From positions 16,563-80,562 of the forward strand of contig DAOWCY010000006.1 of the NCBI GenBank assembly GCA_030639305.1: a DNA stretch of 64,000 nt, read 5' to 3'. The notes beneath the pieces were generated by a model that made no database searches, was not told the origin of the DNA, and saw only the letters and a program-made list of their open reading frames with translations. Below are positions 6,952 to 63,860 of the stretch, piece by piece. Positions within the stretch are counted from its first letter, which is position 1. Every line of letters starts with the position of its first letter. This DNA is from Candidatus Aminicenantes bacterium. GTDB lineage: Bacteria > Acidobacteriota > Aminicenantia > UBA2199. The position numbers and the translations under genes are program-made.

Positions 6952-7185
6952 TTCTTTTTCCTCCTCTTTCGGCATAAATGCCGGACCGCATAAGAGAGCC
7001 GCTTAAGACTCTACATGGCACTCCTACCTCTACTGTTGGGTGAAAATCCTGTTCCGGTGTAACGATAATTTAGCGTTTTGGAGTGTACGACTCTATTTTA
7101 AAAGAAATCTTTCAAGAATTCAATATGTTTGTTGATTTTTTTTTCATAAACCGGTTTTTCTATCGCTTTTCCCCAAATTTGAATC

Positions 7186-8845: not shown

Positions 8846-8896
8846 TTGCGCCTCAATCCCCATTATAGGAGAGCTTCCCCGGTTTGTCAAATTCTT

Positions 8897-9015
8897 ACCT
8901 CCGGCGGCCCTGCCGGGGGCCAAACTTTTGTAAAAGTTTGATCAAAACTTTTGATTAGCGATACGCTTTTCTGCTTTGAGGAACGTTCTTCGTTTGCACC
9001 GCGTCCCGGGGCCTA
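8897..9015. repeat. Intergenic modular repeat element, orientation 1 (GCCTCCGGCGGCCCTGCCGGGGGCCAAACTTTTG.AAAAGTTTGATCAAAACTTTTG...)
   Basis: Matches the family seen about 20 times in this window. Contains the GATC-centred palindrome AAAGTTTGATCAAAACTTT. Confidence 0.8.
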
Positions 9016-9113
9016 CAATTGACCGGTGGTAATAGCTGTATAGACTATATTAAAAACTACCCGCCCATCTTATACCGACCGGCAGCCCCTTATAGGCTCC
9101 CCGCACCGCGGGG

Positions 9114-14174: not shown

Positions 14175-14400
14175 TCTTTTTTACCACGAAGGACACGAAG
14201 GGCACGAAGCGGGATTGTGTCCGCAATTGGCGAAGAGTTTTTTGTAACGATGAACCGGGGCTTACCTGGCGCCGCAGGGAACGCTTTTGATTCTAAATTA
14301 TAAAAAGTTTTGATTAAACTTTTTCAAAGGTGCGGTGTGCCGCGGCCCCCAACTTCAATTTAATGGGGGCATCACCCGGCAGGGTCGCCGAAGGCAAGTA
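14170..14400. repeat. Intergenic modular repeat element, orientation 2 (...AAAAGTTTTGATTAAACTTTTTCAAAG...CCCGGCAGGGTCGCCGAAGGCAAG)
   Basis: Same family. Its 3' module creates the false N-terminal extension ...ASPGRVAEGK of ORF 14330. Confidence 0.75.
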
Positions 14401-14404
14401 TTAT

Positions 14405-15376
14405 ATGAAATTAAAATATAAAGAAGTAGCAGAAGGAATCTATGAAATAGAGACCCATTATTTAAACAGGGAGAAATTCGCCTGTTGTTACCTGATCGAG
14501 GATGGCGGTGAAGCCGCCGTAATCGAGACCAACACCAACAACGCCGTATCTCATATACTCCGCACTATCGACAATGTCGGCTTAGACAGGAAACAGGTAA
14601 AATATGTGATCGTCACCCACATCCACTTAGATCATGCCGGTGGCAGCGGTGAGTTGATGAGACACCTGCCTGGAGCCCGGTTCGTGGTTCACCCCAGGGG
14701 CAAACGTCATATGATAAACCCTGAGAAACTGATCGCCAGCGTCAAGCAGGTTTATGGCGAAGAGAAGTACCGCGAATATTACGGCGAAATCGTTCCGGTG
14801 GAGAAAAAACGGGTGCACACGGCGGTGGACGGCGAAATACTCCGCTTAGGCGGCAGGGAACTGCTGTTAGTGGAAACACCGGGCCATGCCAAGCACCACA
14901 TCGTTATCTTCGATAAAAAGACCGGGTCTCTTTTCAGCGGGGATGCTTTCGGTATCGGTTATCCCCGTTATGAACCGGGCAAACCGGGATTGATTTTCCC
15001 CTCTACTTCTCCTACCCAATTCGATCCCGAAGCAGCGCTCGAGACGCTGCGGAAAATTGTCGAGCTAAAACCGGCCCGCGTCCTGCGAACCCATACCGGG
15101 GCCATAGAAAGTGTCGCAGCCAATGCGCAGCGTTTGCAAGAGTGGATAGAGTTTTCGGTAAGTATTGCTGAAAAGAGATATGGCGAAGGATACCGGGACG
15201 ACGAATTAACCGGGAAGTTAACCGGCGACATCTGGGCGAAATTTGAAAAGACCTTAAAAGATGAGCTAAACCGCGGTTTAGATGAAGAGGAGCGGGAGTT
15301 TCTAAGCATCGACGCCGAACTGAATGCCCAGGGATTGGCCCATTACGTGACAAAGCTCAAAGCCGAAGACCAATGA
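14405..15376 (+). CDS. MBL-fold metallo-hydrolase
   Basis: HIHLDHAGG (HxHxDH) and downstream His/Asp ligands. Start set at MKLKYKE (14405); the upstream part is repeat-derived. Confidence 0.7.
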   Translation: MKLKYKEVAEGIYEIETHYLNREKFACCYLIEDGGEAAVIETNTNNAVSHILRTIDNVGLDRKQVKYVIVTHIHLDHAGGSGELMRHLPGARFVVHPRGKRHMINPEKLIASVKQVYGEEKYREYYGEIVPVEKKRVHTAVDGEILRLGGRELLLVETPGHAKHHIVIFDKKTGSLFSGDAFGIGYPRYEPGKPGLIFPSTSPTQFDPEAALETLRKIVELKPARVLRTHTGAIESVAANAQRLQEWIEFSVSIAEKRYGEGYRDDELTGKLTGDIWAKFEKTLKDELNRGLDEEEREFLSIDAELNAQGLAHYVTKLKAEDQ

Positions 15377-16050: not shown

Positions 16051-16330
16051 CCTCACGGCGCACCCAGCCTATAAGCCGCTTCGCGGCAGGAGCCAACGAT
16101 GGCTGTTTATTGTGTAGAAAAACGTATCGCTCATAAAAAGTTTTGCCCCGTGCGCACGGGGAGGCGTTGAGCGGCTTCGCCGCAGGAGCCAACGATGGCC
16201 GTATATTGTGTAGAAAAGCGTATCGCTCATCAAAAGTTTTTGGAAGTCCAGAAACCTTTTTTCAAAAAAGTTTTTGGTCGCCGAAGGCAAAGCCCCCGGC
16301 AGGGTCGCCGAAGGCAAAGTAATTTCATAG
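16040..16330. repeat. Composite repeat block with an internal tandem duplication (two copies of about 100 bp containing GCCGCTTCGCGGCAGGAGCCAACGATGGC...TGTGTAGAAAA.CGTATCGCTCAT.AAAAGTTTT) plus hairpin module CCCCGTGCGCACGGGG and the terminal GGCAGGGTCGCCGAAGGCAAAG module
   Basis: Direct reading: the two copies at about 16070-16145 and 16170-16245 are nearly identical. ORFs 15938..16192, 16069..16317, 16195..16437 and 16230..16415 are translations of this repeat. Confidence 0.75.
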
Positions 16331-19134: not shown

Positions 19135-19275
19135 TCACCCGGATACCGGGAAAAACAAAGCCCGCGGCGCGGGCACCCTATAAGCAGAACCGCGGGGGGA
19201 CGGCGTCCCCAGCCTATAAGCCGCTGCGCGGCAAAAACAGCAGCGGCGGGGAATCCAAAACCCGAAGTGTGATAA
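19135..19275. repeat. Repeat element of the hairpin sub-family (GCCCGCGGCGCGGGC...GGGACGGCGTCCCC...AGCCTATAAGCCGCTGCGCGGCAAAAACAGCAGCGGCGGGGAATCCAAAACCCG)
   Basis: The same module occurs in reverse orientation at 45880-45960 and inside CDS 22863..24470 (about 23522-23583). Confidence 0.7.
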
Positions 19276-19307
19276 AAAAAAACAAACTTTAAAATAGGAG
19301 GAAAAAT

Positions 19308-20329: not shown

Positions 20330-20893
20330 ATGTCTAAAAAAAACAACGAAAATTCTCGATATACGGAAAAGAAGAGCCGCGGCGGTAGATATGTCGGCCT
20401 CAAAATATTTTCCGGTATCGTTTCGGTGGCCCTGATCGCAGCCACTATCCACATCCAGGGCGTAAAAAACGTTCATAAAAAAGAACTGGTAAAAATCAGT
20501 TTACAATTCCAGGATTTGAATGAACAGGTTTCCCAAATCGAAAATACCAAAAAGAAAAGAAGCGATTTTTTCAAAAACAAATTCCTGATCGACTATCCGC
20601 CGCGTTATTCTTTTGCAGTTTCCGATTTTACCCGGCGCTTAAGTTTGACCGCCCCAGGCGGCATGAAGTTCGACTCCATGGAGATAAGACCCGGGCCGCG
20701 GAATTTTACTTTTTCTCTCAGCGGCAGGGTAAAACCCGCCGAAAGTGGAAAAATGAACCGGCTGTTTTTCGAGTTTTACCGCGAATTAGAGAGTTTCGAC
20801 AACCTGATGCATGTTGTACCTTCTAAGAAAGAGGTCGATGCAGCGGGCCGGGGTTTGTTTTTTAGCATAGACGGGGAGGTGGAAGTAGAATGA
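20330..20893 (+). CDS. Membrane-anchored hypothetical protein (possible PilN/GspL-like assembly component)
   Basis: One N-terminal TM (LKIFSGIVSVALIAATIHI) followed by a coiled-coil segment. 4-nt overlap with the next gene. Family assignment is weak. Confidence 0.35.
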   Translation: MSKKNNENSRYTEKKSRGGRYVGLKIFSGIVSVALIAATIHIQGVKNVHKKELVKISLQFQDLNEQVSQIENTKKKRSDFFKNKFLIDYPPRYSFAVSDFTRRLSLTAPGGMKFDSMEIRPGPRNFTFSLSGRVKPAESGKMNRLFFEFYRELESFDNLMHVVPSKKEVDAAGRGLFFSIDGEVEVE

Positions 20894-21654
20894 AGAAAGG
20901 ACGCTTAATGGTTGGGATAAGCGGTATTTTATTAATTATCGCAGTAGTGTTTGTTTATTTATCGTTCTATTTTTTTCCCACTGTAGAAGACATCAACAAG
21001 TATAGACGGGAAGCAAAAGATATAAAAGCGCGGCTAGCTGATTTCGGGCAAGTGGAGAGAAATTTTTCTTTTCCCGACGAAAAAGAGGAAGATTATTTTG
21101 AAAAAGCGGGAAAGGAATTTAAAAATAAAATCCCCAAAATAAGGGGCAAAGGTGATTTAGCCCGGCTGCTGGACCCGGTTTCCGGTTATTTGCGGGAACT
21201 GGCCGGGGCAGATGGCATCGCAGCTCTTGTTATCGAGCCGGGCAGCGAAGAGGCTGGGAAAGAAGCAGCGGGTTTTTTAAAATACCGGGTTATGCTGCTG
21301 CGTTTTACCGGGGAATTAGGAAAAGGGCTTAATTTTATCAACCACATTCCCTGGGGTAAATATTACATAGGCGTGGATAAAATCACCCTATCCGGGAGCG
21401 GGGAGCTGCCCGGCTTCGGGGTTAAACTCAGGGTCTATTATTTCGCTACCGGAGGAGCTTCCGCGCAAACGGACGCAGCCCGGGATACTGCAAAAACCGG
21501 CGAAGGGGGTTTAGAGATCGATTTCGATTCGGAAATCTTATTGGAGCGGGTGTATTATAATGTACCCGAACGTTACATAAAAAGAGAACTGCCCACCGCC
21601 CCACTCGCGCCCCGTACGCAGGGGCAGCGTGTGAGCGCTTTTGATTTTAAATAA
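20890..21654 (+). CDS. Membrane-anchored hypothetical protein (possible PilO/GspM-like). The last 20 residues are encoded by a repeat element.
   Basis: N-terminal TM (MVGISGILLIIAVVFVYLSFYFF) then a coiled coil. The C-terminal ...PTAPLAPRTQGQRVSAFDFK is a translation of repeat module GGGGCAGCGTGTGAGCGCTTTTGATTTTAAA (21596-21655). Confidence 0.35.
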   Translation: MKKGRLMVGISGILLIIAVVFVYLSFYFFPTVEDINKYRREAKDIKARLADFGQVERNFSFPDEKEEDYFEKAGKEFKNKIPKIRGKGDLARLLDPVSGYLRELAGADGIAALVIEPGSEEAGKEAAGFLKYRVMLLRFTGELGKGLNFINHIPWGKYYIGVDKITLSGSGELPGFGVKLRVYYFATGGASAQTDAARDTAKTGEGGLEIDFDSEILLERVYYNVPERYIKRELPTAPLAPRTQGQRVSAFDFK

Positions 21655-21720
21655 ACAAAAGTTTTGATCAAACTTTTTCAAAAGTTTGGCCCCCGGCAGG
21701 GCCGCCCAATCCTGTGTCTT
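21596..21720. repeat. Modular repeat element (orientation 2) overlapping the 3' ends of two convergent genes
   Basis: ...CAGGGGCAGCGTGTGAGCGCTTTTGATTTTAAATAAACAAAAGTTTTGATCAAACTTTTTCAAAAGTTTGGCCCCCGGCAGGGCCGCC. Confidence 0.8.
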
Positions 21721-21865
21721 TAGCGATTTCCTGACATTTTTGCAGGGCTTCCCTGGCATATTCTATGCCTAATTTCTCTTTTAATTCGGAGAATGAAATC
21801 TTTGCTTTTTTAAATCCATGCTTAACAAAATCAACCTCGTTAATAGAAACGCTTAAAGTCCTCAT
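21668..21865 (-). CDS. Small hypothetical protein, possibly ribbon-helix-helix-like. The C-terminal 14 aa are repeat-derived.
   Basis: MRTLSVSINEVDFVKHGFKKAKISFSELKEKLGIEYAREALQKCQEIAKDTG, then GLGGPAGGQTFEKV from the repeat. Confidence 0.25.
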   Translation of the reverse strand: MRTLSVSINEVDFVKHGFKKAKISFSELKEKLGIEYAREALQKCQEIAKDTGLGGPAGGQTFEKV

Positions 21866-22862: not shown

Positions 22863-24470
22863 TTGAAATCCGGCTGTTTTTTGTATAAAATAAACAATGG
22901 TAAAAAAAACGATATGAATAAATTGCAAAACGAAATCCCAGGCAGCCGGGCAAAACTATATATGTACCTCTATATTATTATTACCTGCCTGCTCTGTTTC
23001 GGGGCAACCGTTTTCCTGCCCTTAGATCCGGGCTATAAAAGACTGCTGGAACAACCGACTAAAATCCTGTTGAAAACTCCGATGGCGGCGCTCTTTTTTA
23101 CTTTTTGTTTTGTGATGCTGTTCTTTTTGCAATTCAAACTGACTGAAACTATTAATAAGAAAAAAGCCGTCCTGATCTTAATTATCGTGGGAATTATTTA
23201 TTTTGTTTCCATGCCTTTTTTCTCATCGGATATTTTCCTGTATACTTTCAAAGGAAAAATACAAGCCGAACTTTCTCTTAATCCTTACGAATTCGTGAAA
23301 TATTTCGATACCCCTTACCAATACCTGTCGCCCTGGGTTTTCGTGCCCCTGGCCTACGGCCCTTTGACCAATTTGGTTTTTAAAACTTTTTATTTCCAGG
23401 GCCTTTCGCCGGTGGCAAATATGTATGTCCTGAAAGCTGTTTTCCTGCTCTTTTATGCAGGCACCGTCCTAATGGTCTACAAATATCTACAGCGGGAAAA
23501 CAAGCCCAGCACCCAGCGGGTGCACCCTATGAGCCGCGGCGCGGCAAAAACAATAGACGACGGGGAATCCAAAACCCGCAGTTTGCTAAACAAGCAGAGC
23601 CTAAACGACGAAACGGGGAAAAATTTCGTGTTTTTTGCTCTTTCACCGCTGCTCCTCATCGAAGGTCTCCTCTGCGCCCACTTAGATGTGATGCCGCTTT
23701 TTTATTTTATTCTTTCGCTTATTTTTTTACAGAGTGGAGCTTCAGAAATCATCAAAAACGTGCCTCCGGCGGCCAAAAACCTTTTTGAAAAAAGGTTTCC
23801 GGACTTCCAAAAACTTCTGTTGAGCCGCTTCGCGGCAAATGTTTTTTTTCCGCTCAGTTTTTTCTGCCTGGGGATGGCCGCCGCATTCAAAGTAAACTAT
23901 GCCATTTTTATGCTTCCCTTCCTGATCGAAAGCATGAGAAAAAATAAATGGCACTTCCTGCACGGCGCTTTTTTTGTCCTGCCGGTGGCTGCTTCCATGA
24001 TATTCTATCCCGATATTAACAAATATATCGGCTCTATTAAATACGTGGCCTCGCTGACCGGCGTCTCCTGTATAAAACTTTTCGATAAAATCAAACCGCT
24101 GCAGTACCTGTTTCTTGTTTTAATCGCAGCGGCATTCGTTTACTTTCTTTATCTCTACCTCAAAAAAAGAATCGACGTTTTTCGATTCTCTTTTATTTTT
24201 TTTATGATCTTCCTGTTTTTTAACAAAATTTTCCAACCCTGGCATATTTTCCCCATCTACGGGCTGCTCCTATTCCTAAAACCGCGAAAATTCGATTATT
24301 TCGGTTTGCTGTCCATGACAGGGATATATTCGGTGTATTTTATTTTTTACCAGTGGAATGAGATGCAGAACTTTATCGCATCTGTAATAATCCTGTGCGC
24401 AATCGGTTATACGGTTATTTCAGAATTAATCGCCGTCAAAAAAACAGCAGGGAGGCAGAGTGCAAGATAA
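22863..24470 (+). CDS. Polytopic membrane protein (GT-C / DUF2029-like glycosyltransferase candidate) with two in-frame repeat-element-derived segments
   Basis: More than 12 hydrophobic helices. Residues ...VHPMSRGAAKTIDDGESKTRSLL... (about 23522-23583) and ...PPAAKNLFEKRFPDFQKLLLSRFAAN... (about 23762-23843) are translations of repeat modules also seen at 19160-19270 and 16230-16270 (revcomp). The ORF stays open across both. Confidence 0.45.
   Translation: MKSGCFLYKINNGKKNDMNKLQNEIPGSRAKLYMYLYIIITCLLCFGATVFLPLDPGYKRLLEQPTKILLKTPMAALFFTFCFVMLFFLQFKLTETINKKKAVLILIIVGIIYFVSMPFFSSDIFLYTFKGKIQAELSLNPYEFVKYFDTPYQYLSPWVFVPLAYGPLTNLVFKTFYFQGLSPVANMYVLKAVFLLFYAGTVLMVYKYLQRENKPSTQRVHPMSRGAAKTIDDGESKTRSLLNKQSLNDETGKNFVFFALSPLLLIEGLLCAHLDVMPLFYFILSLIFLQSGASEIIKNVPPAAKNLFEKRFPDFQKLLLSRFAANVFFPLSFFCLGMAAAFKVNYAIFMLPFLIESMRKNKWHFLHGAFFVLPVAASMIFYPDINKYIGSIKYVASLTGVSCIKLFDKIKPLQYLFLVLIAAAFVYFLYLYLKKRIDVFRFSFIFFMIFLFFNKIFQPWHIFPIYGLLLFLKPRKFDYFGLLSMTGIYSVYFIFYQWNEMQNFIASVIILCAIGYTVISELIAVKKTAGRQSAR
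23522..23583. repeat. Repeat module inserted in-frame inside CDS 22863..24470
   Basis: CACCCTATGAGCCGCGGCGCGGCAAAAACAATAGACGACGGGGAATCCAAAACCCGCAGT versus 19215-19265. Confidence 0.65.
23762..23843. repeat. Second repeat module inserted in-frame inside CDS 22863..24470
   Basis: GCCTCCGGCGGCCAAAAACCTTTTTGAAAAAAGGTTTCCGGACTTCCAAAAACTTCTGTTGAGCCGCTTCGCGGCA. Confidence 0.65.
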
Positions 24471-25281
24471 ATCGAAAGAAAAAGCCTTTTTCGACCGTTT
24501 TTCCGCTGTCAAAGAGTACGATGTGTTTACGCCCTACGGCTATAGATCGATCATCGAAGATTATCTAAAGTTAATCGGCAGCCGAGTTGCTAAAAAGGGT
24601 ACACCTGGGGAAACTAAACAAAAGTTTTTTGGGGGGTCCAGGGGGGCGATTTTTCAAAAAAGCCCCCCTGGTCGCCGAAGGCAAGAAAAGATAATCGACT
24701 TAGGCTGCGGCACCGGGAATTTTACTCGCAGGTTCGCCGCATCTTACGAAGCCCGTTTTTTCGGCCTCGATATTTCGCAAAAATCGGCGGCCCTGGCTGC
24801 CCGGTTGGACCCGGGGATAAACTACTGCGCCGGGGATATCGAACATTGTTGTTTTAAAAAGGAAAACTTCGACATAGTGCTTTTTTCCGGCGTACTGCAT
24901 CATTTCGAGGATTACGAAACCTGCCTGCGGGAAGGTTTCCGTTTATTAAAAAAAGGCGGCTGTATGCTCTCTTATGACCCCAATATTAAGAATCCCGCTA
25001 TGTGGCTCTACCGCCACCCGGCCTCTCCTTTTTTCTCGAAAAAAGGCAAAACCGACAACGAACAACTGCTCTCGGTTTCCCAATTAGCGTTATCTTTGCA
25101 AAAAACAGGCTTTACGAATATAGACGTCCACGGCATCGGCGGCGTCACTTTCAAGTATGTAGAATCGCGTGTAGGGCGGCTTTTACTGCCTTTTTACAAC
25201 CTTTTCGAAGCGCTGTTGGGACTCATTCCCCCGGCCAAAAAATACGGTTCTTTTGTTATCGCCTATGGAGAGAAAGCATGA
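24460..25281 (+). CDS. Class I SAM-dependent methyltransferase with a repeat-derived in-frame insertion just before motif I
   Basis: Motif I IIDLGCGTGNFT; acidic/post-I motifs follow. Residues KGTPGETKQKFFGGSRGAIFQKSPPGRRRQEK (about 24618-24695) are translated from the repeat module AAAAGTTTTTTGGGGGGTCCAGGGGGGCGATTTTTCAAAAAAGCCCCCCTGGTCGCCGAAGGCAAG (compare 46690-46765). Confidence 0.7.
   Translation: MQDKSKEKAFFDRFSAVKEYDVFTPYGYRSIIEDYLKLIGSRVAKKGTPGETKQKFFGGSRGAIFQKSPPGRRRQEKIIDLGCGTGNFTRRFAASYEARFFGLDISQKSAALAARLDPGINYCAGDIEHCCFKKENFDIVLFSGVLHHFEDYETCLREGFRLLKKGGCMLSYDPNIKNPAMWLYRHPASPFFSKKGKTDNEQLLSVSQLALSLQKTGFTNIDVHGIGGVTFKYVESRVGRLLLPFYNLFEALLGLIPPAKKYGSFVIAYGEKA
24618..24695. repeat. 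Repeat module inserted in-frame in the methyltransferase gene
   Basis: See the CDS 24460..25281 evidence. Confidence 0.65.
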
Positions 25282-26669: not shown

Positions 26670-26800
26670 GCCCCACATGCGTGGGGGAGCGTTGAGCCGC
26701 TTCGCGGCAGAGCAGCGTTTTTGATTCTAAATTATAAAAAGTTTTGATCAAACTTTTTCAAAAGTTTGGCCCCCGGCAGGGTCGCCGAAGGCAAAGAAAT
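26670..26800. repeat. Full-length modular repeat element (orientation 2), reference copy
   Basis: CCCCACATGCGTGGGGG-AGCGTTGAGCCGCTTCGCGGCAGAGCAGCGTTTTTGATTCTAAATTATAAAAAGTTTTGATCAAACTTTTTCAAAAGTTTGGCCCCCGGCAGGGTCGCCGAAGGCAAAG. Confidence 0.85.
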
Positions 26801-33404: not shown

Positions 33405-33680
33405 GCTCTTGCCTCCGGCGGCCCCTGCCGGGGAGGCCAAACTTTTAAAAAAGTTTGATCAAAACTTTTTATAATTTAAAATCAAAAGCGCTCACACGCT
33501 GCCTCTTGCGGCGAAGCCGCTTATACCCTGCCCACGTGGTGGGGTGCCTCCGGCGGCCCTGCCGGGGGCCAAACTTTTGAAAAAGTTTGATCAAAACTTT
33601 TGTTTATTTAGAAGCAAAAGCGCTCACACGCTGCGAAGCGGCTTATCGCCTCCCCGTGCGCACGGGGTTAAAATCCAAAG
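33405..33680. repeat. Two tandem copies of the modular repeat element (orientation 1)
   Basis: GCCTCCGGCGGCCC.TGCCGGGG.GGCCAAACTTTT.AAAAAGTTTGATCAAAACTTTT...AAAAGCGCTCACACGCTGC...GCGAAGC(C/G)GCTTAT appears twice in a row, ending in the CCCCGTGCGCACGGGG hairpin. Confidence 0.8.
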
Positions 33681-37039: not shown

Positions 37040-37320
37040 AAATAAAAGAAATTGCAAGCCTCCGGCAGGGGGGCAGCGCGCCCAACATCTTAGCCTCCGG
37101 CGGCCCTGCCGGGGGCCAAACTTTTGAAAAAGTTTGATCAAAACTTCTTATGATTTAGAATCAAAAGCGCTCACACGCTGCTTCTTGCGGCGAAGCCGCT
37201 TATTGCCTCCCCACGCAGTGGGGCTTTTGAAAAAGTTTGATCAAAACTTCTTATGATTTAGAATCAAAAGCGCCTCTTGCGGCGAAGCGGCTTATTGCCT
37301 CCCCGTGCGCACGGGGTTAG
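37040..37320. repeat. About 1.5–2 tandem copies of the modular repeat element (orientation 1)
   Basis: GCCTCCGGCGGCCCTGCCGGGGGCCAAACTTTTGAAAAAGTTTGATCAAAACTTCTTATGATTTAGAATCAAAAGCGCTCACACGCTGC..., then a second partial copy ending CCCCGTGCGCACGGGG. Confidence 0.8.
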
Positions 37321-41272: not shown

Positions 41273-42352
41273 ATGGCCGCGCTTATTTCGGATATGAAAC
41301 TACCTGCTCTCCTGTTAATGGTAACCGATGATTGCAATTTCGGGTGTAAATACTGTTACCAGACCAAAGGGAATCGATATATGAGCTGGGAGACGGCAAA
41401 AAAAACACTGGATTTTTTCCTGCCCCGGTTGGGAAAAAATTATCGTCTCGCTTTTTTGGGAGGCGAACCTTTTCTCGCTTTCGACTTGATAAAAGAGGCA
41501 GTCGCTTATTTAAAAATAAAAAATAAAGAACTGTCTAAGACCGTGCATTATGCGGCCAATAGCAACGGCAGCCTGTTAGATGACGCTGTACTCGATTTTT
41601 TGCAGCAAAATAATTTTACGCTGGCCGTCAGTTTCGATGCGTTTAAACAGGATTGGGGACGAAAAAAAAATAGTTTTAACCTGGTCCAGGCTGCTGTTAA
41701 AAAGGCGCTGGCCCGGCCCGGCATTCGCCTGGAAATCGCCAGTACATTTACTCCCGGCACTGTGGCCGGTTTGTGTGAATCTTTAGAATATATCATCGGT
41801 TTAGGAGTGCCGAAAGCGTCGTTTTCCTTAGATATGACCGTGGCATGGGACCGGGCGTCCTTAGACCGGTTGGCCCGGGAACTTGCCTCTCTAAGAAAGT
41901 TCCTCTTAAAGAATTATCCCGACGGCAAAAAAACACCGGTGCGTTTTTTTAGTGAAGGAGAGTGGAGCGGCATCTGGCAGTGTGCCGCGGGTCTTACCCA
42001 ATTACTGGTTACACCCACCGGGCAAATATGGGGCTGTCCTCTTTTTTACGAATTCTTTAAAGGAAAAGAGTCGAGCCCGGCTTACGGGGAGTATTGTTTC
42101 GGCGGACTACCGGATTTCGTAAACACTTACCGCCGGGTGCCGGCAAATTACGCCCGTTTCAGGATGGACAATTTTCACCGGTCAAATTCTCCCTGTTTTT
42201 TGTGTCCTTTAGTAGAAAAATGCATCATCTGCCCGGTCAGCAGGCCGGAGGGGGATGCCCCCCGTCTTTTGGTGGCCTCTTATTTATGTGAAATGAGTAA
42301 AATCCTCATCGCCGAGAAAGAAAAATTCGCCCGTGGCACGGGCACCCTATAA
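41273..42352 (+). CDS. Radical SAM protein with C-terminal SPASM/twitch Cys-rich domain (peptide-modifying maturase-like)
   Basis: CNFGCKYC radical SAM cluster motif. C-terminal auxiliary-cluster cysteines ...CAAG...GQIWGCP...CFLCPLVEKCIICP. Confidence 0.75.
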   Translation: MAALISDMKLPALLLMVTDDCNFGCKYCYQTKGNRYMSWETAKKTLDFFLPRLGKNYRLAFLGGEPFLAFDLIKEAVAYLKIKNKELSKTVHYAANSNGSLLDDAVLDFLQQNNFTLAVSFDAFKQDWGRKKNSFNLVQAAVKKALARPGIRLEIASTFTPGTVAGLCESLEYIIGLGVPKASFSLDMTVAWDRASLDRLARELASLRKFLLKNYPDGKKTPVRFFSEGEWSGIWQCAAGLTQLLVTPTGQIWGCPLFYEFFKGKESSPAYGEYCFGGLPDFVNTYRRVPANYARFRMDNFHRSNSPCFLCPLVEKCIICPVSRPEGDAPRLLVASYLCEMSKILIAEKEKFARGTGTL

Positions 42353-42458
42353 GGGGCTGCCTATCGAGATATGATAGCCGGGTAGTTTCTACTATTGGTT
42401 ATACAGTACAATTACAACCGGTCATTTGTAAGCCCCGGGGCGCGGCATTGAAGATCGA

Positions 42459-45659: not shown

Positions 45660-45745
45660 AGACTTGCCTCCGGCGGCCCTGCCGGGGGCCAAATTTTTGA
45701 AAAAGTTTGAACAAAACTTTTGTTTAAAAAAGCGAAAAACCCCCT
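45660..45745. repeat. Partial modular repeat element (orientation 1)
   Basis: GCCTCCGGCGGCCCTGCCGGGGGCCAAATTTTTGAAAAAGTTTGAACAAAACTTTTG. Confidence 0.75.
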
Positions 45746-45869
45746 ATAAAAGCTTTGAATTTTTCTTTTTCCAAAACTGAACACTTACAAAAAATCGTAA
45801 CGATTCAATTTTGGAGAAATCGATATCTACGCAGTTCATATTCCGCTCACGTCCCTATCTCCAAAGTTT

Positions 45870-46080
45870 TTTTTTTCACACTGCGAGTATTGGATTCCCC
45901 GGCTGCTGCTGTTTTTGCCGCGGAGCGGTTTATAGGGTGCCCGCGCCGCGGGCTTTTACAGGATAATAATATAATGGTATAATGTTTTTTCAAGAGCGGA
46001 CGGCGTCCGCAGCTTATGAGGGGCCTGGGCGGGCGGCGTCCGCACCCCCGTGCCACGGGCCTGCTCGCCGAAGTTAGGAG
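45870..46080. repeat. Hairpin sub-family repeat block (reverse orientation of the 19135-19275 type). Contains GGTGCCCGCGCCGCGGGC and AGCGGACGGCGTCCGC hairpins.
   Basis: GGATTCCCCGGCTGCTGCTGTTTTTGCCGCGGAGCGGTTTATAGGGTGCCCGCGCCGCGGGC..., matching the revcomp of 19200-19265. ORFs 45755..45982 and 45847..46056 are translations of it. Confidence 0.7.
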
Positions 46081-46626: not shown

Positions 46627-46765
46627 GCCCACCACGTGGGCAGGGTATAAGCTGCTTCGCAGCAGGGGCAGCGGGTGAGCGCTTTTGATTTTCACTCATA
46701 AAAAGTTTTTTGGGGGTCCAGGGGGCAATTTTACAAAAACGCCCCCTGGCCGCCGGAGGCAAGGC
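46625..46765. repeat. Modular repeat element (orientation 2, GGGGGTCCAGGGGGC variant)
   Basis: CCCACCACGTGGG hairpin ...GCTGCTTCGCAGCAGGGGCAGCGGGTGAGCGCTTTTGATTTTCACTCATAAAAAGTTTTTTGGGGGTCCAGGGGGCAATTTTACAAAAACGCCCCCTGGCCGCCGGAGGCAAGGC. Confidence 0.8.
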
Positions 46766-48517: not shown

Positions 48518-48665
48518 CCCCGTGCGCACGGGGAGGCGATAAGCGGCTTCGCCGCATGGGGCAGCGTGTGAGCGTTTTTGATTCTAACTCATAAAAAGTT
48601 TTGATCAAACTTTTTCAAAAGTTTGGCCCCCGGCAGGGCCGGCGGCGGCGGTGAATTCTGGATAA
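48515..48665. repeat. Full modular repeat element (orientation 2)
   Basis: CCCCGTGCGCACGGGGAGGCGATAAGCGGCTTCGCCGCATGGGGCAGCGTGTGAGCGTTTTTGATTCTAACTCATAAAAAGTTTTGATCAAACTTTTTCAAAAGTTTGGCCCCCGGCAGGGCCGGCGG. Confidence 0.85.
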
Positions 48666-53899: not shown

Positions 53900-54060
53900 G
53901 GTTGTTTTTTTTGGTCGATCCCCACTCGCGTGGGGAGGCTATGAGCGGCTTCGCCGCAAGAGGCAGCGTGTGAGCGCTTTTGATTTTAAATAATAAGAAG
54001 TTTTGATCAAACTTTTACAAAAGTTTGGCCCCCGGCAGGGCCGCCGGAGGCAAGGATGGG
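53900..54060. repeat. Full modular repeat element (orientation 2)
   Basis: CCCCACTCGCGTGGGGAGGCTATGAGCGGCTTCGCCGCAAGAGGCAGCGTGTGAGCGCTTTTGATTTTAAATAATAAGAAGTTTTGATCAAACTTTTACAAAAGTTTGGCCCCCGGCAGGGCCGCCGGAGGCAAGG. Confidence 0.85.
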
Positions 54061-54072
54061 GCTGAATGCTTA

Positions 54073-56001
54073 TTATACCCACAGCAGCAGTTCGGTTAGT
54101 TCTTTTTTTCCTAACTGCGCCTTCGGCCCCAAACGCACCTGCACTACCCCTTCTTTGTCTTCAGATACGATGCGGCGCAGTTCGGTGGTCACCACCCGCA
54201 TACGGTCATAAGTAGATAAATCAAAACTGCGCCGCCTATCGAAAGCACTCTTCCTATATCCCGGCGGCGGCGGCAGTTCTACCGCTTCGTTAATATTTCC
54301 GGCAAAATCTTCACGGCTGCTGATTTGCCCGCCTTCGAAGCAGAGCAGGATTCGCTTTTTTTCTTTGCCCACCGACTCCTGCCAAAAGAGTGTCGATTCG
54401 CTCAAAAGAGAAAACCAGCGCGAACGCCGCAGCAGGTGAGCGCCATGGCGGATAATGCCTTCCAGCATCGACGCTGCCGCTTCAGGCGTCCAAACTTTCT
54501 CTTCTTTTTCATCCTCCGCGGAGCTGCCGTTCTCATCTATTTCCGTGCTGTTTTTTCCCTCTTCTTCGAGCCCGGCTGCGGCCAGTTCTTTTAATTTGCG
54601 GCGGCTCAGTTCCTTGCCCAAAAGCAGCACCCTGTTAACAATATTCCCCGGAGGTATCATACTTGTCTGTCCCTGTTTAGCCTCATCAAATTGGCCTGTC
54701 CCCAAAAACTCATCATGCTCCCGGTAAAACAACTCGACCCCCTGCAAAAAAACCTCCAAACCGGGGGCATACTCTTCGGGAATCCCCAATAATTCAGCAC
54801 AAAAATTATTTTTTGCCTCCGGCGGCCTTGCCGGGGGCCAAACTTTTGAAAAAGTTTGAACAAAACTTTTATTTAATTTAGCCTGAAATTGGCCTGTCCC
54901 CTTTTCGAGCAACTCGATAATACCGGCCAGGGATTGCAGCGTTTGTACCGAAACTACCGGGCCAAGACGGTACACCTTATCCACTCCGGGAGCAGATTGT
55001 CGCAAATCCGAAGAAAAATAAAAAAGCCGCCGCTCCCCTTTCCGCAACGCTGCATTATAAGGCGGCGAGTGTTTTTTGATCTCATCAGATTCCAGCAAAG
55101 CAGCTTCTAAAGCCGATCCGGTCACCGTAATATCTAATTTATTGGCCTGGGTCAACATCTCTAAAGTGCGTTCAGAATGTTTGGCGCTCTTACGGAAATA
55201 ACTACCCACCCGCTGCTTCAAAGACGTTGCTTTGCCGATATAAAGCAGGTCGCCGTTGGAACGCAGCATCCGGTAAACACCGGGCAAGCCGGGCAAACCG
55301 CTTCGTTCCTTCGCCGCCATGGGGTAAACCCTTCCGGCGGAACCGGCCCCGGAAACAGCGGGTGGAGCTTCCAGCCATTCCCGCAGTTCCGGCAAGGTGC
55401 GGACGCCCCGCTGCTCTAAAAGTTTAACCGTTTCTTTCCAGGTGAAATTAGTGGCTTCGATGTGAGAGGCGCTGCGGCGCAGTTCAGGCACCGAATACCC
55501 CAAATAACCGGCTGCTGCCCGCAGACCTTTGCGAGGCAATTGAGGCAGCAGGCGTTTGATCACCCGGTGGGTACAAATAATCTCGAAAGGAAAAGGTTTT
55601 CCGGGCGACCATTTTTGATGCATTTCCCTGAGATAAGGTTCCTCGAAACGGGCAAAATGAATCACCGTAGGGCATAGTCCTCTTTTATTGGCTGCCGCTG
55701 TTCTTTTTACCGCCCGAAACAGTTTTTTCCAAGCTTTTTTGGGGGGCAGGCCGCGGGCCGCGTCCTCCGCAGAAATGCCGGTGATGCGTTTTACCGCGGT
55801 AGGGATGATTTCGTCATGCGGCAGTTTGATGAGATAAGAGGTGATTTTTTCGTTATTTTCCCGGCTTGAAGCCCGCACCCTGGCCCAGCCGATTTCCAGC
55901 AGACGCCCTTTTGCCGGGTTAGAACCGGTAGCCTGGCAGTCTACTATTAATACTTCCAGGCTGGATAACAGGTTTTCTTTTTTGAGATTCGATACTCGCA
56001 T
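54073..56001 (-). CDS. DnaQ-like 3'-5' exonuclease domain fused to a GIY-YIG (Cho/UvrC-like) nuclease domain. Carries an in-frame repeat-derived segment.
   Basis: N-terminal LEVLIVDCQATGSNPAKGRLLEIGW (DEDD exonuclease motif I). GIY-YIG GVYRMLRSNGDLLYIGKATSLKQRVGSYF. Residues ...LNKSFVQTFSKVWPPARPPEAKNNF... are the translation (revcomp) of repeat module 54815-54880. Confidence 0.65.
   Translation of the reverse strand: MRVSNLKKENLLSSLEVLIVDCQATGSNPAKGRLLEIGWARVRASSRENNEKITSYLIKLPHDEIIPTAVKRITGISAEDAARGLPPKKAWKKLFRAVKRTAAANKRGLCPTVIHFARFEEPYLREMHQKWSPGKPFPFEIICTHRVIKRLLPQLPRKGLRAAAGYLGYSVPELRRSASHIEATNFTWKETVKLLEQRGVRTLPELREWLEAPPAVSGAGSAGRVYPMAAKERSGLPGLPGVYRMLRSNGDLLYIGKATSLKQRVGSYFRKSAKHSERTLEMLTQANKLDITVTGSALEAALLESDEIKKHSPPYNAALRKGERRLFYFSSDLRQSAPGVDKVYRLGPVVSVQTLQSLAGIIELLEKGTGQFQAKLNKSFVQTFSKVWPPARPPEAKNNFCAELLGIPEEYAPGLEVFLQGVELFYREHDEFLGTGQFDEAKQGQTSMIPPGNIVNRVLLLGKELSRRKLKELAAAGLEEEGKNSTEIDENGSSAEDEKEEKVWTPEAAASMLEGIIRHGAHLLRRSRWFSLLSESTLFWQESVGKEKKRILLCFEGGQISSREDFAGNINEAVELPPPPGYRKSAFDRRRSFDLSTYDRMRVVTTELRRIVSEDKEGVVQVRLGPKAQLGKKELTELLLWV
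54815..54880. repeat. Repeat module (orientation 1) lying in-frame inside CDS 54073..56001
   Basis: GCCTCCGGCGGCCTTGCCGGGGGCCAAACTTTTGAAAAAGTTTGAACAAAACTTTT. Confidence 0.7.
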
Positions 56002-56639: not shown

Positions 56640-56830
56640 CCCATGCCTTCGGCGACCCTGCCGGGGGGGGCGGCGCACCTATGGATTATTTTTTTCTTGC
56701 CTTCGGCGACCCTGCCGGGGGCCAAACTTTTGAAAAAGTTTGAACAAAACTTTTTATAATTTAAAAGCAAAAGCACCAGCCTGCCGCGAAGCGGCTTATT
56801 GCCTCCCCACGCGAGTGGGGCCACGCCGCG
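56640..56830. repeat. Modular repeat element, about 1.5 copies (orientation 1)
   Basis: GCCTTCGGCGACCCTGCCGGGGG appears twice, then CCAAACTTTTGAAAAAGTTTGAACAAAACTTTTTATAATTTAAAAGCAAAAGCACCAGCCTGCCGCGAAGCGGCTTATTGCCTCCCCACGCGAGTGGGG. Confidence 0.8.
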
Positions 56831-62741: not shown

Positions 62742-63569
62742 ATGCGTGATTTTGCAGGAAAAAATGCTTTAATTACAGGCGGAGCCAGCGGCATCGGTTT
62801 GGCCGCGGCAAAAGAATTGATTCGCAGCGGTGCGAATGTAACGATTTTCGACTTGAACGGCGAGGCGTTGGGCAGCGCTGTAAAAGAACTGGAAGCTTTT
62901 GCCGGTGAAGTGAATGCGGACGTGCGCTGTGAAGGCGAAACCGGTGATGTTACCGATTTCGAAGCCCTTAAAAAAGTTGTAGACAGCATGGAGGAAAAAG
63001 GTAACCCGGTGGACCTTTTATTAACTTGCGCCGGGATAGCACATCCCACTGCGCTGGCGGAATTAGATCTCGACATCATCAAAAAAACGGTAGATATAGA
63101 TTTATTGGGCACTATTTATTCCTGTCGCGCCGTATTGCCCGGTATGATAAAAAGGGACGGCAGAGGTCACATTGCCTTAGTCAGTTCTTTGGCCGGGATT
63201 CTCGGTGTTTATGGGTATTCCGCTTATGGAGCCGCCAAGTTCGGCGTCCGCGGGTTAGGCGAGGTGCTGCTCCAGGAATTGAAACCCTACGATATTAACG
63301 TCACTATTTTGTTTCCCCCGGATACGGACACCCCGCAGTTTGAATATGAGAACCGGTTCAAACCCGAAGCCACGAAAGCCATCGCCGGGACGATTAAGCC
63401 GGTTTCCGCCGAATATGTGGCCCGCTGTTTAGTAAAGGGGATCCGGAAGAACCGTTTCCAGGTGATACCTACTTTTACCGGCAAAGTTACGAATATGGCG
63501 TCTAAACTTTTTGCGCCTATCTTGCGTTGGGCCCTAGTCGGTGTGGTAAAGAAAGCAGTTAGAAAATAG
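62742..63569 (+). CDS. SDR-family NAD(P)-dependent oxidoreductase
   Basis: ALITGGASGIGLAAAKEL (TGxxxGxG). Catalytic SSLAG...YSAYGAAK (YxxxK). Confidence 0.85.
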   Translation: MRDFAGKNALITGGASGIGLAAAKELIRSGANVTIFDLNGEALGSAVKELEAFAGEVNADVRCEGETGDVTDFEALKKVVDSMEEKGNPVDLLLTCAGIAHPTALAELDLDIIKKTVDIDLLGTIYSCRAVLPGMIKRDGRGHIALVSSLAGILGVYGYSAYGAAKFGVRGLGEVLLQELKPYDINVTILFPPDTDTPQFEYENRFKPEATKAIAGTIKPVSAEYVARCLVKGIRKNRFQVIPTFTGKVTNMASKLFAPILRWALVGVVKKAVRK

Positions 63570-63660
63570 GCCCGCGGTCCGAGCACCCTAATTAAAAGTT
63601 TTGATCAACCCCACTGCGTGGGGAGGCGTTTAGCTGTTTCGCAGCAGGGAGGTGTTTTTG
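63570..63660. repeat. Short repeat element (AAAAGTTTTGATCAA, CCCCACTGCGTGGGG hairpin, GCTGTTTCGCAGCAGGG)
   Basis: CCTAATTAAAAGTTTTGATCAACCCCACTGCGTGGGGAGGCGTTTAGCTGTTTCGCAGCAGGGAGG. Confidence 0.65.
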
Positions 63661-63860
63661 GTTTCTCATACGTACACCACGTTTTCCAGTATATTTTTCT
63701 TTATCGTACTCTTCAGGGCGTTGGGGGTTACCAGGTCTACCGCCGTTCCTAATTGGTCTGTCAAAAAAGATTTTAACCTGGAGAATTCAAATAGATTCAC
63801 CGGGCGCATCCTTGTTTTGGCACCAATGTTGCACTCTATAATACAGGTAAGAAAAACTAT

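Follow-up and report, generated by a model that had tools for sequence, protein, structure and literature searches.

In-Frame Copies of a Modular Hairpin Repeat in Conserved Genes of a Candidatus Aminicenantes Genome

Results

The Locus and Its Repeat

The DNA analyzed here (the window) is a stretch of 64,000 nt from a Candidatus Aminicenantes MAG. Self-BLAST of these 64 kb reveals a modular repeat, built of hairpins and 60–135 nt long, at ~24 loci, and repeat finding combined with an nhmmer profile built from seven full copies gives at least 16 strong copies (E from 1e-6 to 3e-46). In the full element, up to six short hairpins follow one another, and interchangeable modules are joined to an M1-M2 core of ~60 nt (TGCCTCCGGCGGCCCTGCCGGGGGCCAAACTTTTGAAAAAGTTTGATCAAAACTTTT). 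About 20 of the ~24 loci are extragenic, many of them 0–25 nt from a stop codon. The intragenic share is 4 of ~24 loci, all in frame, within three conserved genes:

22863..24470, + strand: host gene 1, polytopic membrane protein (535-aa ORF; 518 aa from the annotated start)
23499..23618, + strand: insert 1 of the membrane protein, residues 213–252, NKPSTQRVHPMSRGAAKTIDDGESKTRSLLNKQSLNDETG, 120 nt
23739..23843, + strand: insert 2 of the membrane protein, residues 293–327, ASEIIKNVPPAAKNLFEKRFPDFQKLLLSRFAANV, 105 nt
24460..25281, + strand: host gene 2, class I SAM-dependent methyltransferase (Methyltransf_11/25), 273 aa
24598..24684, + strand: methyltransferase insert, residues 47–75, GTPGETKQKFFGGSRGAIFQKSPPGRRRQ, 87 nt
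54073..56001, − strand: host gene 3, fusion of a DnaQ-like exonuclease and a GIY-YIG nuclease, 642 aa
54805..54897, − strand: nuclease insert, residues 369–399, TGQFQAKLNKSFVQTFSKVWPPARPPEAKNN, 93 nt

A first-pass annotation of this DNA had placed repeats in frame inside the membrane protein (twice), the methyltransferase, and the nuclease. The observation is confirmed and its interpretation supported: the quoted peptides are present, and so are the three ORFs as described, save that the minus strand of the third had gone unstated.

The Inserts Are Clean, Frame-Preserving Indels

Insert limits were set from the gaps in ortholog alignments alone, independently of the repeat, and the DNA of each insert was then compared with the window with its own position masked. 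The closest orthologs used are ~50–63% identical (BLASTP). Limits obtained in this way fall ~15 nt or less from the module coordinates given earlier. Relative to the aligned orthologs, the four inserts are clean extra segments of 29–41 residues, i.e., the indels of repeat length that had been predicted, and homology to the orthologs continues in frame 3′ of all four. All four lengths are multiples of 3 and all four inserts are stop-free; from length alone, this has a probability of (1/3)^4 ~0.012 under neutrality. Neither self-BLAST nor Pfam showed a repeat-disrupted or out-of-frame gene in the window. Orthologs with the same peptide segments, proposed earlier as a sign of coincidental similarity, were not seen; repeat-derived 7-mers occur in 0 of 244 fetched homologs. 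The syntenic membrane protein–methyltransferase–radical-SAM–AmOx operons of three related genomes have zero repeat copies in genes or spacers; therefore, the copies are gains in the lineage of the window.

The membrane protein belongs to a faintly recognizable MptA_B/GT-C-like family (Pfam tag PF26314), and its six orthologs have 399–453 aa, with 47–51% identity in BLASTP and 54–60% in the alignment. The ~40 and ~35 extra residues are missing from all six. Insert 1 is a mosaic of a hairpin (GCACCCAGCGGGTGC), ACCCTATGAG, a second hairpin (CCGCGGCGCGG), and a CAAAAACA...GGGGAATCCAAAAC module, the hairpins being read in the same sense as in copies located past stop codons. It matches positions 19213–19264 (88.7% over 53 nt, E 6e-9) and 45880–45940 (82% over 61 nt). 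This insert is hydrophilic (mean KD −1.32) and flanked by hydrophobic segments (residues 184–207 and 253–277). Insert 2 combines a consensus-oriented variant of the M1-M2 module with a GCCGCTTCGCGGC hairpin, and its reading frame (PPAA...) is the sole stop-free frame in the consensus sense. It matches positions 16225–16289 (90.8% over 65 nt, E 1.5e-18) and 26691–26709 (19/19 nt), is also flanked by hydrophobic segments according to hydropathy, and lies where 6/6 orthologs have a loop of 4–5 residues. Three contigs carry the membrane protein with its two inserts.

The methyltransferase (Pfam E 7e-21, domain starting at ~residue 78) was aligned with 17 orthologs of 243–281 aa, all of which have a 29-residue gap opposite the insert. 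This insert is a reversed variant module (M2-M1) with a perfect 10-bp GC hairpin (CCAGGGGGGC...GCCCCCCTGG). It is 87.7% identical to 46701–46762 over 65 nt (E 1e-6), and shares exact runs of 15–16 nt with five other copies at their M1 end. Motif I (IIDLGCGTG) begins two codons past it. The earlier suggestion that inserts map to surface loops stands for this protein, where the insert is a low-confidence loop: in the AF2 model (pLDDT 82.8, pTM 0.84) the sole segment below 50, residues 49–70, lies between helix 25–42 and strand 77–81. The model is thus confident throughout apart from the insert, a loop that precedes SAM motif I. For the membrane protein the same check gave a model (mean pLDDT 51) too poor for placing the inserts. 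Four contigs, belonging to no fewer than two assemblies (NCBI GCA_023135565.1, ENA ERZ23498442), encode the identical 273-aa methyltransferase together with its insert.

The nuclease (RNase_T at residues 19–168, GIY-YIG at residues 241–316) has hundreds of orthologs, of ~585–605 aa versus 642 aa in the window. Its ~28–31 extra residues are missing from 13/13 aligned orthologs, at a site that the alignment identifies as a variable, indel-rich linker past the GIY-YIG domain. The insert is an M1-M2 core on the + strand, so that the gene reads the reverse complement, in the frame KSF.QTFSKVWPPA.PPEA. It shows 93–96% identity over 48–64 nt to nine other copies (nhmmer E 3.8e-20), the best match with its own position masked being 95.3% over 64 nt (E 3.5e-25).

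Copies Outside the Host-Gene Interiors

8891..9112, + strand: M1-M2 copy (8896–8959; nhmmer E 6.5e-20) and hairpin module (9036–9112), the latter adjoining the stop of a SAM hydroxide adenosyltransferase gene
14270..14416, − strand: copy between EF-G and an MBL-fold gene (E 1.6e-18)
16051..16324, − strand: two degenerate or variant copies directly past an ABC ATPase stop codon, containing the variant M2 module matched by insert 2 of the membrane protein
19157..19281, + strand: hairpin-module copy, the best match to insert 1 of the membrane protein
21590..21712, − strand: copy donating two gene 3′ ends (E 1.5e-29)
26671..26794, − strand: full-length intergenic copy 1 nt past a radical-SAM stop codon (E 3e-38), in the same operon as the membrane protein and methyltransferase genes
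33409–33544 and 33545–33667, + strand: two tandem full-length copies (E 3.5e-42 and 1.8e-40), the pair 33409..33667 lying 22 nt past the stop of a minus-strand 1110-aa gene
37091..37316, + strand: 1.7 tandem copies (E 2.6e-46 and 7e-27), adjoining the stop codon of a CNNM/CorC gene (37317, minus strand)
42329..42445, + strand: hairpin-module copy overlapping the final codons and the stop codon of radical-SAM gene 41273..42352
45663..45954, divergent promoter region: M1-M2 copy 45664–45737 (+) and hairpin-module copy 45869–45954 (−)
46628..46762, − strand: copy 1 nt past a nitroreductase stop codon (E 2.8e-22), holding the variant module closest to the methyltransferase insert
48518..48649, − strand: full-length copy directly 3′ of the MutL stop codon (E 1.3e-43)
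53920..54053, − strand: full-length copy (E 2.6e-46) between the DnaQ/GIY-YIG gene and a convergent kinase/cyclase gene
56643..56820, + strand: isolated M1 module (56643–56667) and full-length copy (56697–56820; E 5e-39), 13 nt past the stop of a Schlafen/AlbA_2 gene
63570..63664, − strand: partial copy directly past the stop of ORF 62742..63569

Some of these copies overlap the ends of genes. The convergent ORFs 20890..21654 (+) and 21668..21865 (−), to which repeats had been said to give C-termini, both end within copy 21590–21712, which encodes the last ~21 codons and stop of the former and the last ~15 codons and stop of the latter. The false N-terminal extensions proposed for thiD and for the MBL-fold gene (ORF 14330..15376) are likewise borne out. 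The N-termini of the longest ORFs, LAPGRAAGG... in thiD and ...SPGRVAEGK in the MBL gene, are encoded by the repeats at 8891..9112 and 14270..14416, upstream of the Pfam domains and of plausible ATGs (8845/8863 and 14405, respectively). The spacer matching copy 26671..26794 is 27–60 nt long and repeat-free in the syntenic loci L122 and L123.

Architecture of the Element

The core includes an AT-rich palindrome (CAAACTTTT GA AAAAGTTTG). The tandem copies at 37091..37316 fold into a string of six hairpins, with z = −5.2 as DNA and −4.0 as RNA. Terminal inverted repeats were not found, as the core ends (TGCCTCCGG... and ...CAAAACTTTT) and the full-element end (...CCCCACGCAGTGGGG) are not mutually inverted; all palindromes of the element are internal hairpins. 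Inspection of the junctions gives only low-complexity candidates for target-site duplications (CGGGAAAA/CGGGGAAAA at insert 1, AAAAG at the methyltransferase insert) and none that is consistent across copies, and no GTAG-like head was seen at the copy ends. Of the six reading frames of the core, three contain no stop codon. The frame used by most in-frame copies is stop-free in 62 of 122 copies, whereas the two remaining frames are stop-free in 24 and 1. Because the commonest in-frame frame is the one most often stop-free, no special frame selection is needed.

Recurrence in Other Populations

Other MAGs of Aminicenantes/Acidobacteriota, as well as 107 metagenome stretches, also contain a 31-nt core of the repeat. 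Among 123 core copies elsewhere, nine lie within long open frames, which supports, for related populations, the earlier proposal of a phenomenon extending beyond these few genes. Pfam domains are present in five of the nine frames (L013, L015, L025, L039, and L107). The in-frame hosts include a PKS (ACP-KS linker), an AMP-binding enzyme (AMP-ligase), an enoyl-CoA hydratase-like protein, a Reg_prop/Y_Y_Y/AraC hybrid regulator, and BACON/Ig surface proteins, the PKS frames having 1600–1900 aa. In the diverged orthologs L039 and L084, the element occupies the same site and both frames are open. This is the only diverged orthologous pair, the others being too similar to inform on element conservation. 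At L070, no transposase was recognizable by eye, without a Pfam scan, among the ORFs between its two copies.

Discussion

Relation to Known Repeats

Palindromic elements of Rickettsia, RPE-1 to RPE-10, were reportedly described by Ogata et al. in 2000 and 2002, and are said to have a Wolbachia counterpart, WPE. Among bacterial MITEs, in-frame fusion is said to concern intragenic ERIC/YPAL (by Delihas in 2007), pneumococcal BOX/RUP/SPRITE (by Croucher in 2011), and Anabaena MITEs. The first-pass annotation regarded in-frame insertion as documented mainly for Rickettsia. This is too narrow, as reviews call in-frame repeat fusions "not unusual" and also list ERIC, BOX/RUP/SPRITE, QMITE, and cyanobacterial MITEs (PMC10969869, PMC3184786), and Coxiella QMITE1/2 are fused with host ORFs (PMC5896051 Table 2). 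The same kind of event is on record for RPE, ERIC, BOX/RUP/SPRITE, and QMITE (PMC10969869, PMC3184786, PMC3767692, PMC5896051). The in-frame, tolerated hairpin repeat, found here outside Rickettsia, is a phenomenon already known from Rickettsia and some other bacteria.

RPEs are short, genome-scattered palindromic repeats of ~100–150 nt (PMC3767692, PMC10969869), and the repeat of the window is similarly dispersed and hairpin-forming. In both, a sizeable fraction of copies lies in frame in unrelated conserved genes that remain unbroken; here the segment is missing from 17, 6, and 13 aligned orthologs of the methyltransferase, membrane protein, and nuclease, respectively. In both, the encoded segments fall in solvent-exposed loops, a position indicated here by AF2 for the methyltransferase, by hydropathy only for the membrane protein, and by a variable linker only for the nuclease. 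Orthologs may carry an insert at the same site, and the peptide recurs because the same frame is used. Yet, the host belongs to an unrelated and presumably free-living environmental lineage, the Aminicenantes/Acidobacteriota, whereas RPE hosts are obligate intracellular alphaproteobacteria. An RPE is also a single palindrome of 100–150 nt; the present element is mosaic, its 60-nt core being combined with interchangeable hairpin modules. Furthermore, most copies here are extragenic and hug stop codons, and stop-codon content suffices to explain the frame bias. The RPE family proper (RPE-1 to RPE-10 and WPE of Rickettsiales) was rejected as an assignment: membership by descent is implausible because the host belongs to Aminicenantes, and the likeness described here is one of features.

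REP/BIME elements of Enterobacteria and Pseudomonas are mosaics of GC-rich imperfect hairpins of 20–40 nt in 3′ flanks and operon spacers, near stop codons, lack TIRs and TSDs, and reach hundreds of copies (PMC3184786). The present repeat also forms mosaics of GC-rich imperfect palindromes, mostly extragenic and at gene 3′ ends. However, REPs are by definition almost solely extragenic, whereas 4 of ~24 loci here are in frame in genes; the core contains an AT-rich palindrome; and neither a conserved GTAG-type head nor, in Pfam scans of the 64-kb window, a RAYT (Y1 transposase) gene was found. MITEs are small non-autonomous repeats that on occasion become part of a host ORF, in its interior or at either end, and donate C-termini and stops (PMC3184786 section 15), as do the repeats within which 20890..21654, 21668..21865, and 41273..42352 end. 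Classical MITEs differ in having TIRs and target-site duplications, and conserved enzymes with internal in-frame copies are less common in MITE systems than in this window. Pfam scans of the 64-kb window gave no transposase that would mark a related autonomous IS.

Origin of the Intragenic Copies

The repeat is probably an expanded non-coding family of modular palindromes, whose intragenic copies are survivors of selection and likely loop insertions. The element would have spread through the genome by transposition or recombination, in the manner of REP/BIME or MITEs, and most surviving copies would lie in spacers, typically directly past stop codons. Selection would purge intragenic copies unless they add a multiple of 3 nt, are stop-free in the frame that is read, and fall in a permissive loop or linker; the four copies described here would be those that escaped. 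Judging from the sequences, they are most likely translated as largely disordered loops of 29–41 residues that spare the host folds. We read the element as a REP/MITE-like selfish or 3′-end element, and we infer that it is mobile, that the proteins with inserts are expressed and functional, and that the peptides are neutral passengers. Two observations point the other way. The excess conservation of the element in L039/L084 is not predicted for a neutral passenger, barring gene conversion or independent insertions, and the source is a MAG, repeats being known to break or confuse assemblies.

Alternatively, the element could be a functional nucleic-acid motif and more than selfish DNA, such as a REP/BIME-like 3′-end hairpin cassette (terminator, mRNA stabilizer, or translation modulator) or a protein-binding site, its intragenic copies being kept, beyond mere tolerance, for a role in DNA or RNA and its sequence maintained by selection or gene conversion even inside genes, e.g., for pausing at domain boundaries. 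We consider this unlikely, although it is compatible with the main explanation of how the copies arose. Location speaks for it: full-length copies in the window start 0–25 nt past stop codons, with the M6 end facing the gene in 7/7 co-directional spacers, and elsewhere, of 28 copies that have a neighboring gene on the M1 side alone, 13 are within 9 nt of that gene's stop codon. However, the orientation rule is not general elsewhere (44 vs 28), and the syntenic operons fare well without any copy. H1 followed by CAAACTTTTG scores as terminator-like, and intragenic copies retain hairpins (RNA fold z = −3.2 for the methyltransferase insert and −3.5 for the nuclease insert), but terminator-like sites in the scanned region are no commoner than in shuffles (24 vs 20.3 ± 4.3), the strong GC hairpin has no U-run after it in the orientation of the window, and the repeat matches no Rfam family. 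The 31-nt core is exactly conserved across populations whose orthologous proteins are only ~50–60% identical, and the element of L039/L084 is ~94–96% identical versus 70–77% for the flanking coding DNA, an excess that comes from this one diverged pair only.

That the host genes are pseudogenes or decaying, with frames open by chance, is very improbable. The organism is known solely as a MAG, which leaves some room for this idea, but the ORFs are open over 535, 273, and 642 codons, the four inserts are stop-free and multiples of 3 in length, as noted above, invariant residues including SAM motif I and GIY-YIG are kept on either side of the inserts, and no out-of-frame insertion was seen in the window. 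Moreover, the element is in frame in the long PKS frames and in two diverged orthologs. Hardly more credible is an origin of the intragenic repeats in faulty metagenome assembly, through chimeric joins or through collapse of repeats. Repeats of ~130 nt with roughly 90–95% identity are hard for short-read assemblers, and the 1869-nt NCBI contig of nuclease P0128 (partial, 386 aa) stops inside the repeat, but this partial protein still reads into it (...KSFVQTFSK). Both flanks of every insert are colinear with the same ortholog, and therefore a chimeric join of unrelated contigs is excluded. The occurrence of the methyltransferase and membrane protein inserts on several contigs, and of in-frame copies in independent metagenomes, also argues against artefacts.

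The preferred reading, tolerated insertion of a dispersed repeat, leaves place for a more speculative and rather improbable one, in which the 60-nt core is a DNA or RNA motif actively maintained even where translated, the in-frame copies serving both as hairpin signal and as linker peptide. A recombinase or nucleoid protein could bind or cleave the core, or the core could act as a structured signal for 3′ ends or translational pausing. The L039/L084 pair is the sole direct hint, and the 31-mer, identical in diverged populations, agrees with it. If so, in-frame copies would be more than tolerated junk and would be placed preferentially at domain boundaries. Examples of copies at such boundaries are those in the ACP-KS linker, before SAM motif I, and before the AMP-ligase P-loop.

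Repeat insertions within genes

The first-pass annotation held that repeat elements lie in frame inside genes of the window, and comparison with orthologs confirms it. With limits set from gaps in ortholog alignments, independently of the repeat, there are four inserts in three genes:

22863..24470 (+), membrane protein: residues 213-252 and 293-327 missing in 6/6 orthologs
24460..25281 (+), methyltransferase: residues 47-75, GTPGETKQKFFGGSRGAIFQKSPPGRRRQ, missing in 17/17 aligned orthologs
54073..56001 (-), DnaQ/GIY-YIG nuclease: residues ~369-399 missing in 13/13 aligned orthologs

The methyltransferase orthologs have 243-281 aa and share 51-63% identity by BLASTP (51-71% in the alignment); the insert ends two residues before SAM motif I. 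In the nuclease, the insertion site is an indel-rich linker C-terminal to the GIY-YIG domain. Homology, including invariant residues, picks up in frame behind every one of the four inserts. When each insert was compared with the repeat family, its own position being masked, all four matched intergenic repeat copies, which identifies them as repeat DNA and supports the reading as insertions. That the orthologs might carry the same peptides is excluded, as none of the 244 other fetched homologs contains a repeat-derived 7-mer. The density is high: four inserts in three of the ~45 window genes, three of them in one operon.

Matches of the in-frame inserts to intergenic repeat copies (insert; position; length; best match)
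Membrane protein, insert 1; 23499-23618; 120 nt; 88.7% over 53 nt, E 6e-9
Membrane protein, insert 2; 23739-23843; 105 nt; 90.8% over 65 nt, E 1.5e-18
Methyltransferase; 24598-24684; 87 nt; 87.7% over 65 nt, E 1e-6
Nuclease; 54805-54897; 93 nt; 95.3% over 64 nt, E 3.5e-25 (twelve more matches)

Three related genomes (L122, L123, and L124) have the syntenic operon coding for the membrane protein, the methyltransferase, a B12-radical SAM protein, and an amine oxidase, and neither the genes nor the spacers of these operons contain a copy of the window repeats. The spacer between the radical-SAM and oxidase genes has 27-60 nt in the related genomes versus 146 nt in the window, where it is filled by a 124-nt element. 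The four copies in the operon are thus gains in the lineage of the window.

AlphaFold2 models the methyltransferase well (pLDDT 82.8, pTM 0.84), and pLDDT falls below 50 only at residues 49-70, between the helix 25-42 and the first Rossmann strand (77-81). Hence, the insert is predicted to be an unstructured loop that leaves the fold undisturbed. The model of the membrane protein was unusable (mean pLDDT 51, seven sequences in the alignment), and hydropathy was taken instead. Hydrophobic segments flank each of the two inserts, at places where the orthologs have short loops; insert 1 itself is hydrophilic, and insert 2 is amphipathic. A methyltransferase ortholog from another MAG (P0008, GCA_024224895.1; locus L014, 1618-1680) has an unrelated 17-residue insertion, EGASPRLSLSPPGQGEA, in almost the same loop, and in one nuclease ortholog (P0171) the linker that takes the insert also holds an insertion. 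These insertions mark the methyltransferase loop and the nuclease linker as permissive sites. The P0008 insertion was rejected as a member of the repeat family: its DNA is GC-rich, with no significant hairpin (z = 0.0) and no clear similarity by eye.

Architecture of the repeat family

The repeat search showed that many direct and inverted repeat families of the window are fragments of one modular element. Seven aligned full copies give a consensus of ~130 nt: TGCCTCCGGCGGCCCTGCCGGGGGCC AAACTTTTGAAAAAGTTTGATCAAAACTTTTT ATAATTTAGAATCAAAAGCG CTCACACGCTGCC.. TGCGGCGAAGCCGCTTAT TGCCTCCCCACGCAGTGGGG. A profile built from them finds at least 16 strong copies in the window (E 1e-6 to 3e-46), and self-BLAST finds ~24 loci. 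Each full copy folds into six separate hairpins in a row (z = -5.2 as DNA, -4.0 as RNA). Modules are interchangeable between copies; some window copies have variant M2 modules, and some have an alternative set made up of two GC hairpins and, after them, CAAAAACAGCAGC..GGGGAATCCAAAAC. Terminal inverted repeats were not found in the copies, nor was a consistent target-site duplication, the only candidates being of low complexity. Neither the window nor L070, a locus from another population, has a match to an Rfam family.

The window itself is ordinary chromosome, with EF-G, MutL, CoaE, ThiD, two-component systems, Ser/Thr kinases, and radical-SAM enzymes, a few defence-like genes, and no transposase or tRNA found. 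Integron attC sites and CRISPR were both dismissed, as the genes are housekeeping ones on both strands and there is neither an array nor an R'/R'' core.

The core in other populations

Exact copies of the 31-nt core GGCCAAACTTTTRWAAAAGTTTGAWCAAAAC are present in several further Aminicenantes/Acidobacteriota MAGs and in a MAG under the label Deferrimicrobium that may be mis-binned; 107 stretches of JGI metagenomes carry the core as well. The part common to 113 core copies is only ~60 nt (M1-M2), with AT-rich flanks. Nine of 123 copies lie within long open frames (>=40 codons on either side). Seven of these nine frames code for credible proteins, six of them checked by Pfam or orthology.

Core copies within coding sequences of other populations
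PKS (two near-identical contigs): in the ACP-KS linker, read as LPPAALPGAKLLKKFDQNF
AMP-binding enzyme: directly before the TSGS..PKG motif
Enoyl-CoA hydratase-like protein: in frame
Reg_prop/Y_Y_Y/AraC regulator: directly after the TM helix
Two orthologous BACON/Ig surface proteins (L039 ~690-720, L084 ~11576-11606): same site, in frame

The AMP-binding enzyme, the enoyl-CoA hydratase-like protein, the regulator, and both surface proteins read the core as ..IKSFDQTFSKVWPPAGPPEA, the frame of the nuclease insert in the window. A selected reading frame or a conserved functional peptide was considered and rejected. The ...KSFDQTFSKVWPPAGPPEA frame is stop-free in 62 of 122 copies, and the other two in 24 and 1 (101-nt span). 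Because that frame is the one most often stop-free, the frame bias among in-frame copies is expected (P about 0.1).

In the two surface proteins, the element is ~94-96% identical versus 70-77% for the flanking coding DNA, and a 12-nt (3n) indel lies just upstream of the core. This excess conservation, seen in one pair, suggests gene conversion among copies, constraint at the nucleotide level, or independent hits at a hotspot.

Five loci (L057, L067, L070, L089, and L104) have a longer right flank in common past the core. In L070 (8947-9180 and 11594-11830), the core is followed by an extra module, GCCACAAAGAGACGGCGCACCAAG...CTTGGTG...GCCTTGGTGGC, and a duplicated gene end. A parent IS behind this flank was rejected: on inspection, the ORFs between the two L070 copies include no recognisable transposase, and the flank is just another hairpin module with the duplicated gene end.

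Copies at gene ends and in spacers

The repeat was also said to donate C-termini and to create false N-termini, and both statements hold. The convergent ORFs 20890..21654 and 21668..21865 both take their final codons and stop from copy 21590-21712, and gene 41273..42352 terminates in a repeat as well. In thiD and the MBL-fold gene, the first residues of the maximal ORF come from the repeat and precede both the Pfam domain and a plausible ATG start. The M1 end of the element holds GGAGG/GAAGG (14385-14407, also 54028-54060), and GAAGG lies ~10 nt upstream of ATG 14405, the likely true start of the MBL gene, the Shine-Dalgarno sequence of which may be supplied by the repeat copy.

Full-length window copies begin 0-25 nt past stop codons, with the M6 hairpin (CCCC..GGGG) first. 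In the following junctions, the copy starts 0-2 nt past the stop of a gene transcribed towards it.

Junctions between stop codons and repeat copies (stop/copy)
MutL, 48517/48518
Nitroreductase, 46626/46628
Radical SAM, 26669/26671
CNNM, 37317/37316
SAM_HAT, 9114/9112
Further junctions, 16050/16051 and 63569/63570

The M6-first orientation is found in 7/7 copies of co-directional spacers in the window. Stop-codon hugging is also seen in other populations, in either orientation (44 versus 28). A rule by which the M6 end points to the upstream gene was thus not retained: it has no exception in the window, but elsewhere the trend is weak.

A 67-aa query that is purely repeat-encoded (33475-33675) gave 14 matches among representative proteins and no new in-frame case. 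Twelve matches are tiny ORFs of 35-95 aa, and the remaining two are long proteins, probably repetitive or of low complexity. The 35-95-aa "proteins" in public collections (P0249-P0261) are probably spurious gene calls, i.e., translations of the repeat.

Origin of the in-frame copies

The account with the best support is that a REP/MITE-like hairpin mosaic expanded specifically in this lineage. Selection would filter the intragenic copies, so that those persisting are of 3n length, stop-free, and in loops; the survivors are presumably translated as disordered loop segments. The affected genes are unlikely to be pseudogenes, as the frame is intact in 4/4 inserts, each insert is flanked by conserved motifs, and disrupted genes were not seen. 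If the insertion shared by the two surface proteins is ancestral, its frame was held while the sequences diverged substantially, a strong argument against pseudogenes. The repeats do fragment the short-read assemblies of this organism, as shown by the NCBI nuclease protein P0128 (386 aa, "partial"), whose 1869-nt contig ends within a repeat (...KSFVQTFSK), and one could suspect that the intragenic copies are assembly artefacts. This is unlikely, as the two flanks of every insert align in order with one and the same ortholog, and several contigs code for the proteins with their inserts; the methyltransferase of 24460-25281 is identical to a protein of a Candidatus Aminicenantes MAG that is encoded on four contigs, which belong to at least two assemblies (NCBI GCA_023135565.1, ENA ERZ23498442).

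A functional role of the repeat at 3' ends is a rival that does not exclude expansion of the mosaic. The placement of extragenic copies next to stop codons resembles REP/BIME biology. Compared with shuffles, terminator-like sites show no enrichment. A maintained dual-use DNA/RNA signal within coding sequence seems an improbable role of the core.

Relation to known repeats

In-frame insertion had been presented as documented mainly for Rickettsia, and it is less exclusive than that. The RPEs of Rickettsia and the WPEs of Wolbachia (100-150 nt) insert in frame in genes; RPE-1 to RPE-3 are common in ORFs, and inserts are found at the same site in orthologs and are solvent-exposed (PMC3767692). 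Other cases are the QMITEs of Coxiella (PMC5896051) and intragenic ERIC, pneumococcal BOX/RUP/SPRITE, and cyanobacterial MITEs (PMC10969869, PMC3184786). No account of such repeats in Aminicenantes came up in a full-text literature search. The element works like an RPE but is not classed as one, on the grounds of its unrelated host and modular architecture. Apart from the in-frame copies it largely fits the description of REP/BIME, and REP/BIME mosaics are nearer in architecture than a classical MITE, whose terminal inverted repeats it lacks.

The presence of repeats in genes is not a new kind of biology; the window adds a clean, dense, cross-population case in a presumably free-living uncultured lineage. 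Protein-coding palindromic repeats are not confined to reduced intracellular genomes like those of Rickettsia; their local density is comparable or higher in this sediment lineage. With the core in frame in at least five other protein families, there is a natural set of loop insertions in known folds, and a second system for studying the movement of such elements and their possible role as a source of new protein segments. For work on MAGs, the repeats matter because they break assemblies, make false N-terminal extensions and small spurious ORFs, and donate C-termini and stops.

Other repeats in the window

A 117-nt stretch occurs in two spacers (56335-56451 and 60759-60875, 82% identical), each read as a small ORF on the minus strand (MSLESFYEKIEESERAAERGDFITQEEL...). 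These may be paralogous small antitoxin-like genes. The stretches flank defence-like genes:

56834-57991, Schlafen/AlbA_2
57979-60615, SMC/AAA_23-like
60909-61841, CAP12/Pycsar-type TIR and phosphoribosyltransferase

Two tandem 102-nt units (31715-31918, 75% identical) within the AAA_16-TPR gene 29573-32338 are an ordinary TPR-repeat duplication, with no relation to the hairpin family. Four tandem paralogs of 132-139 aa (5285-6975, minus strand; DUF7793 / SpoIIAA-like, 66-82% DNA identity) adjoin two-component system genes.
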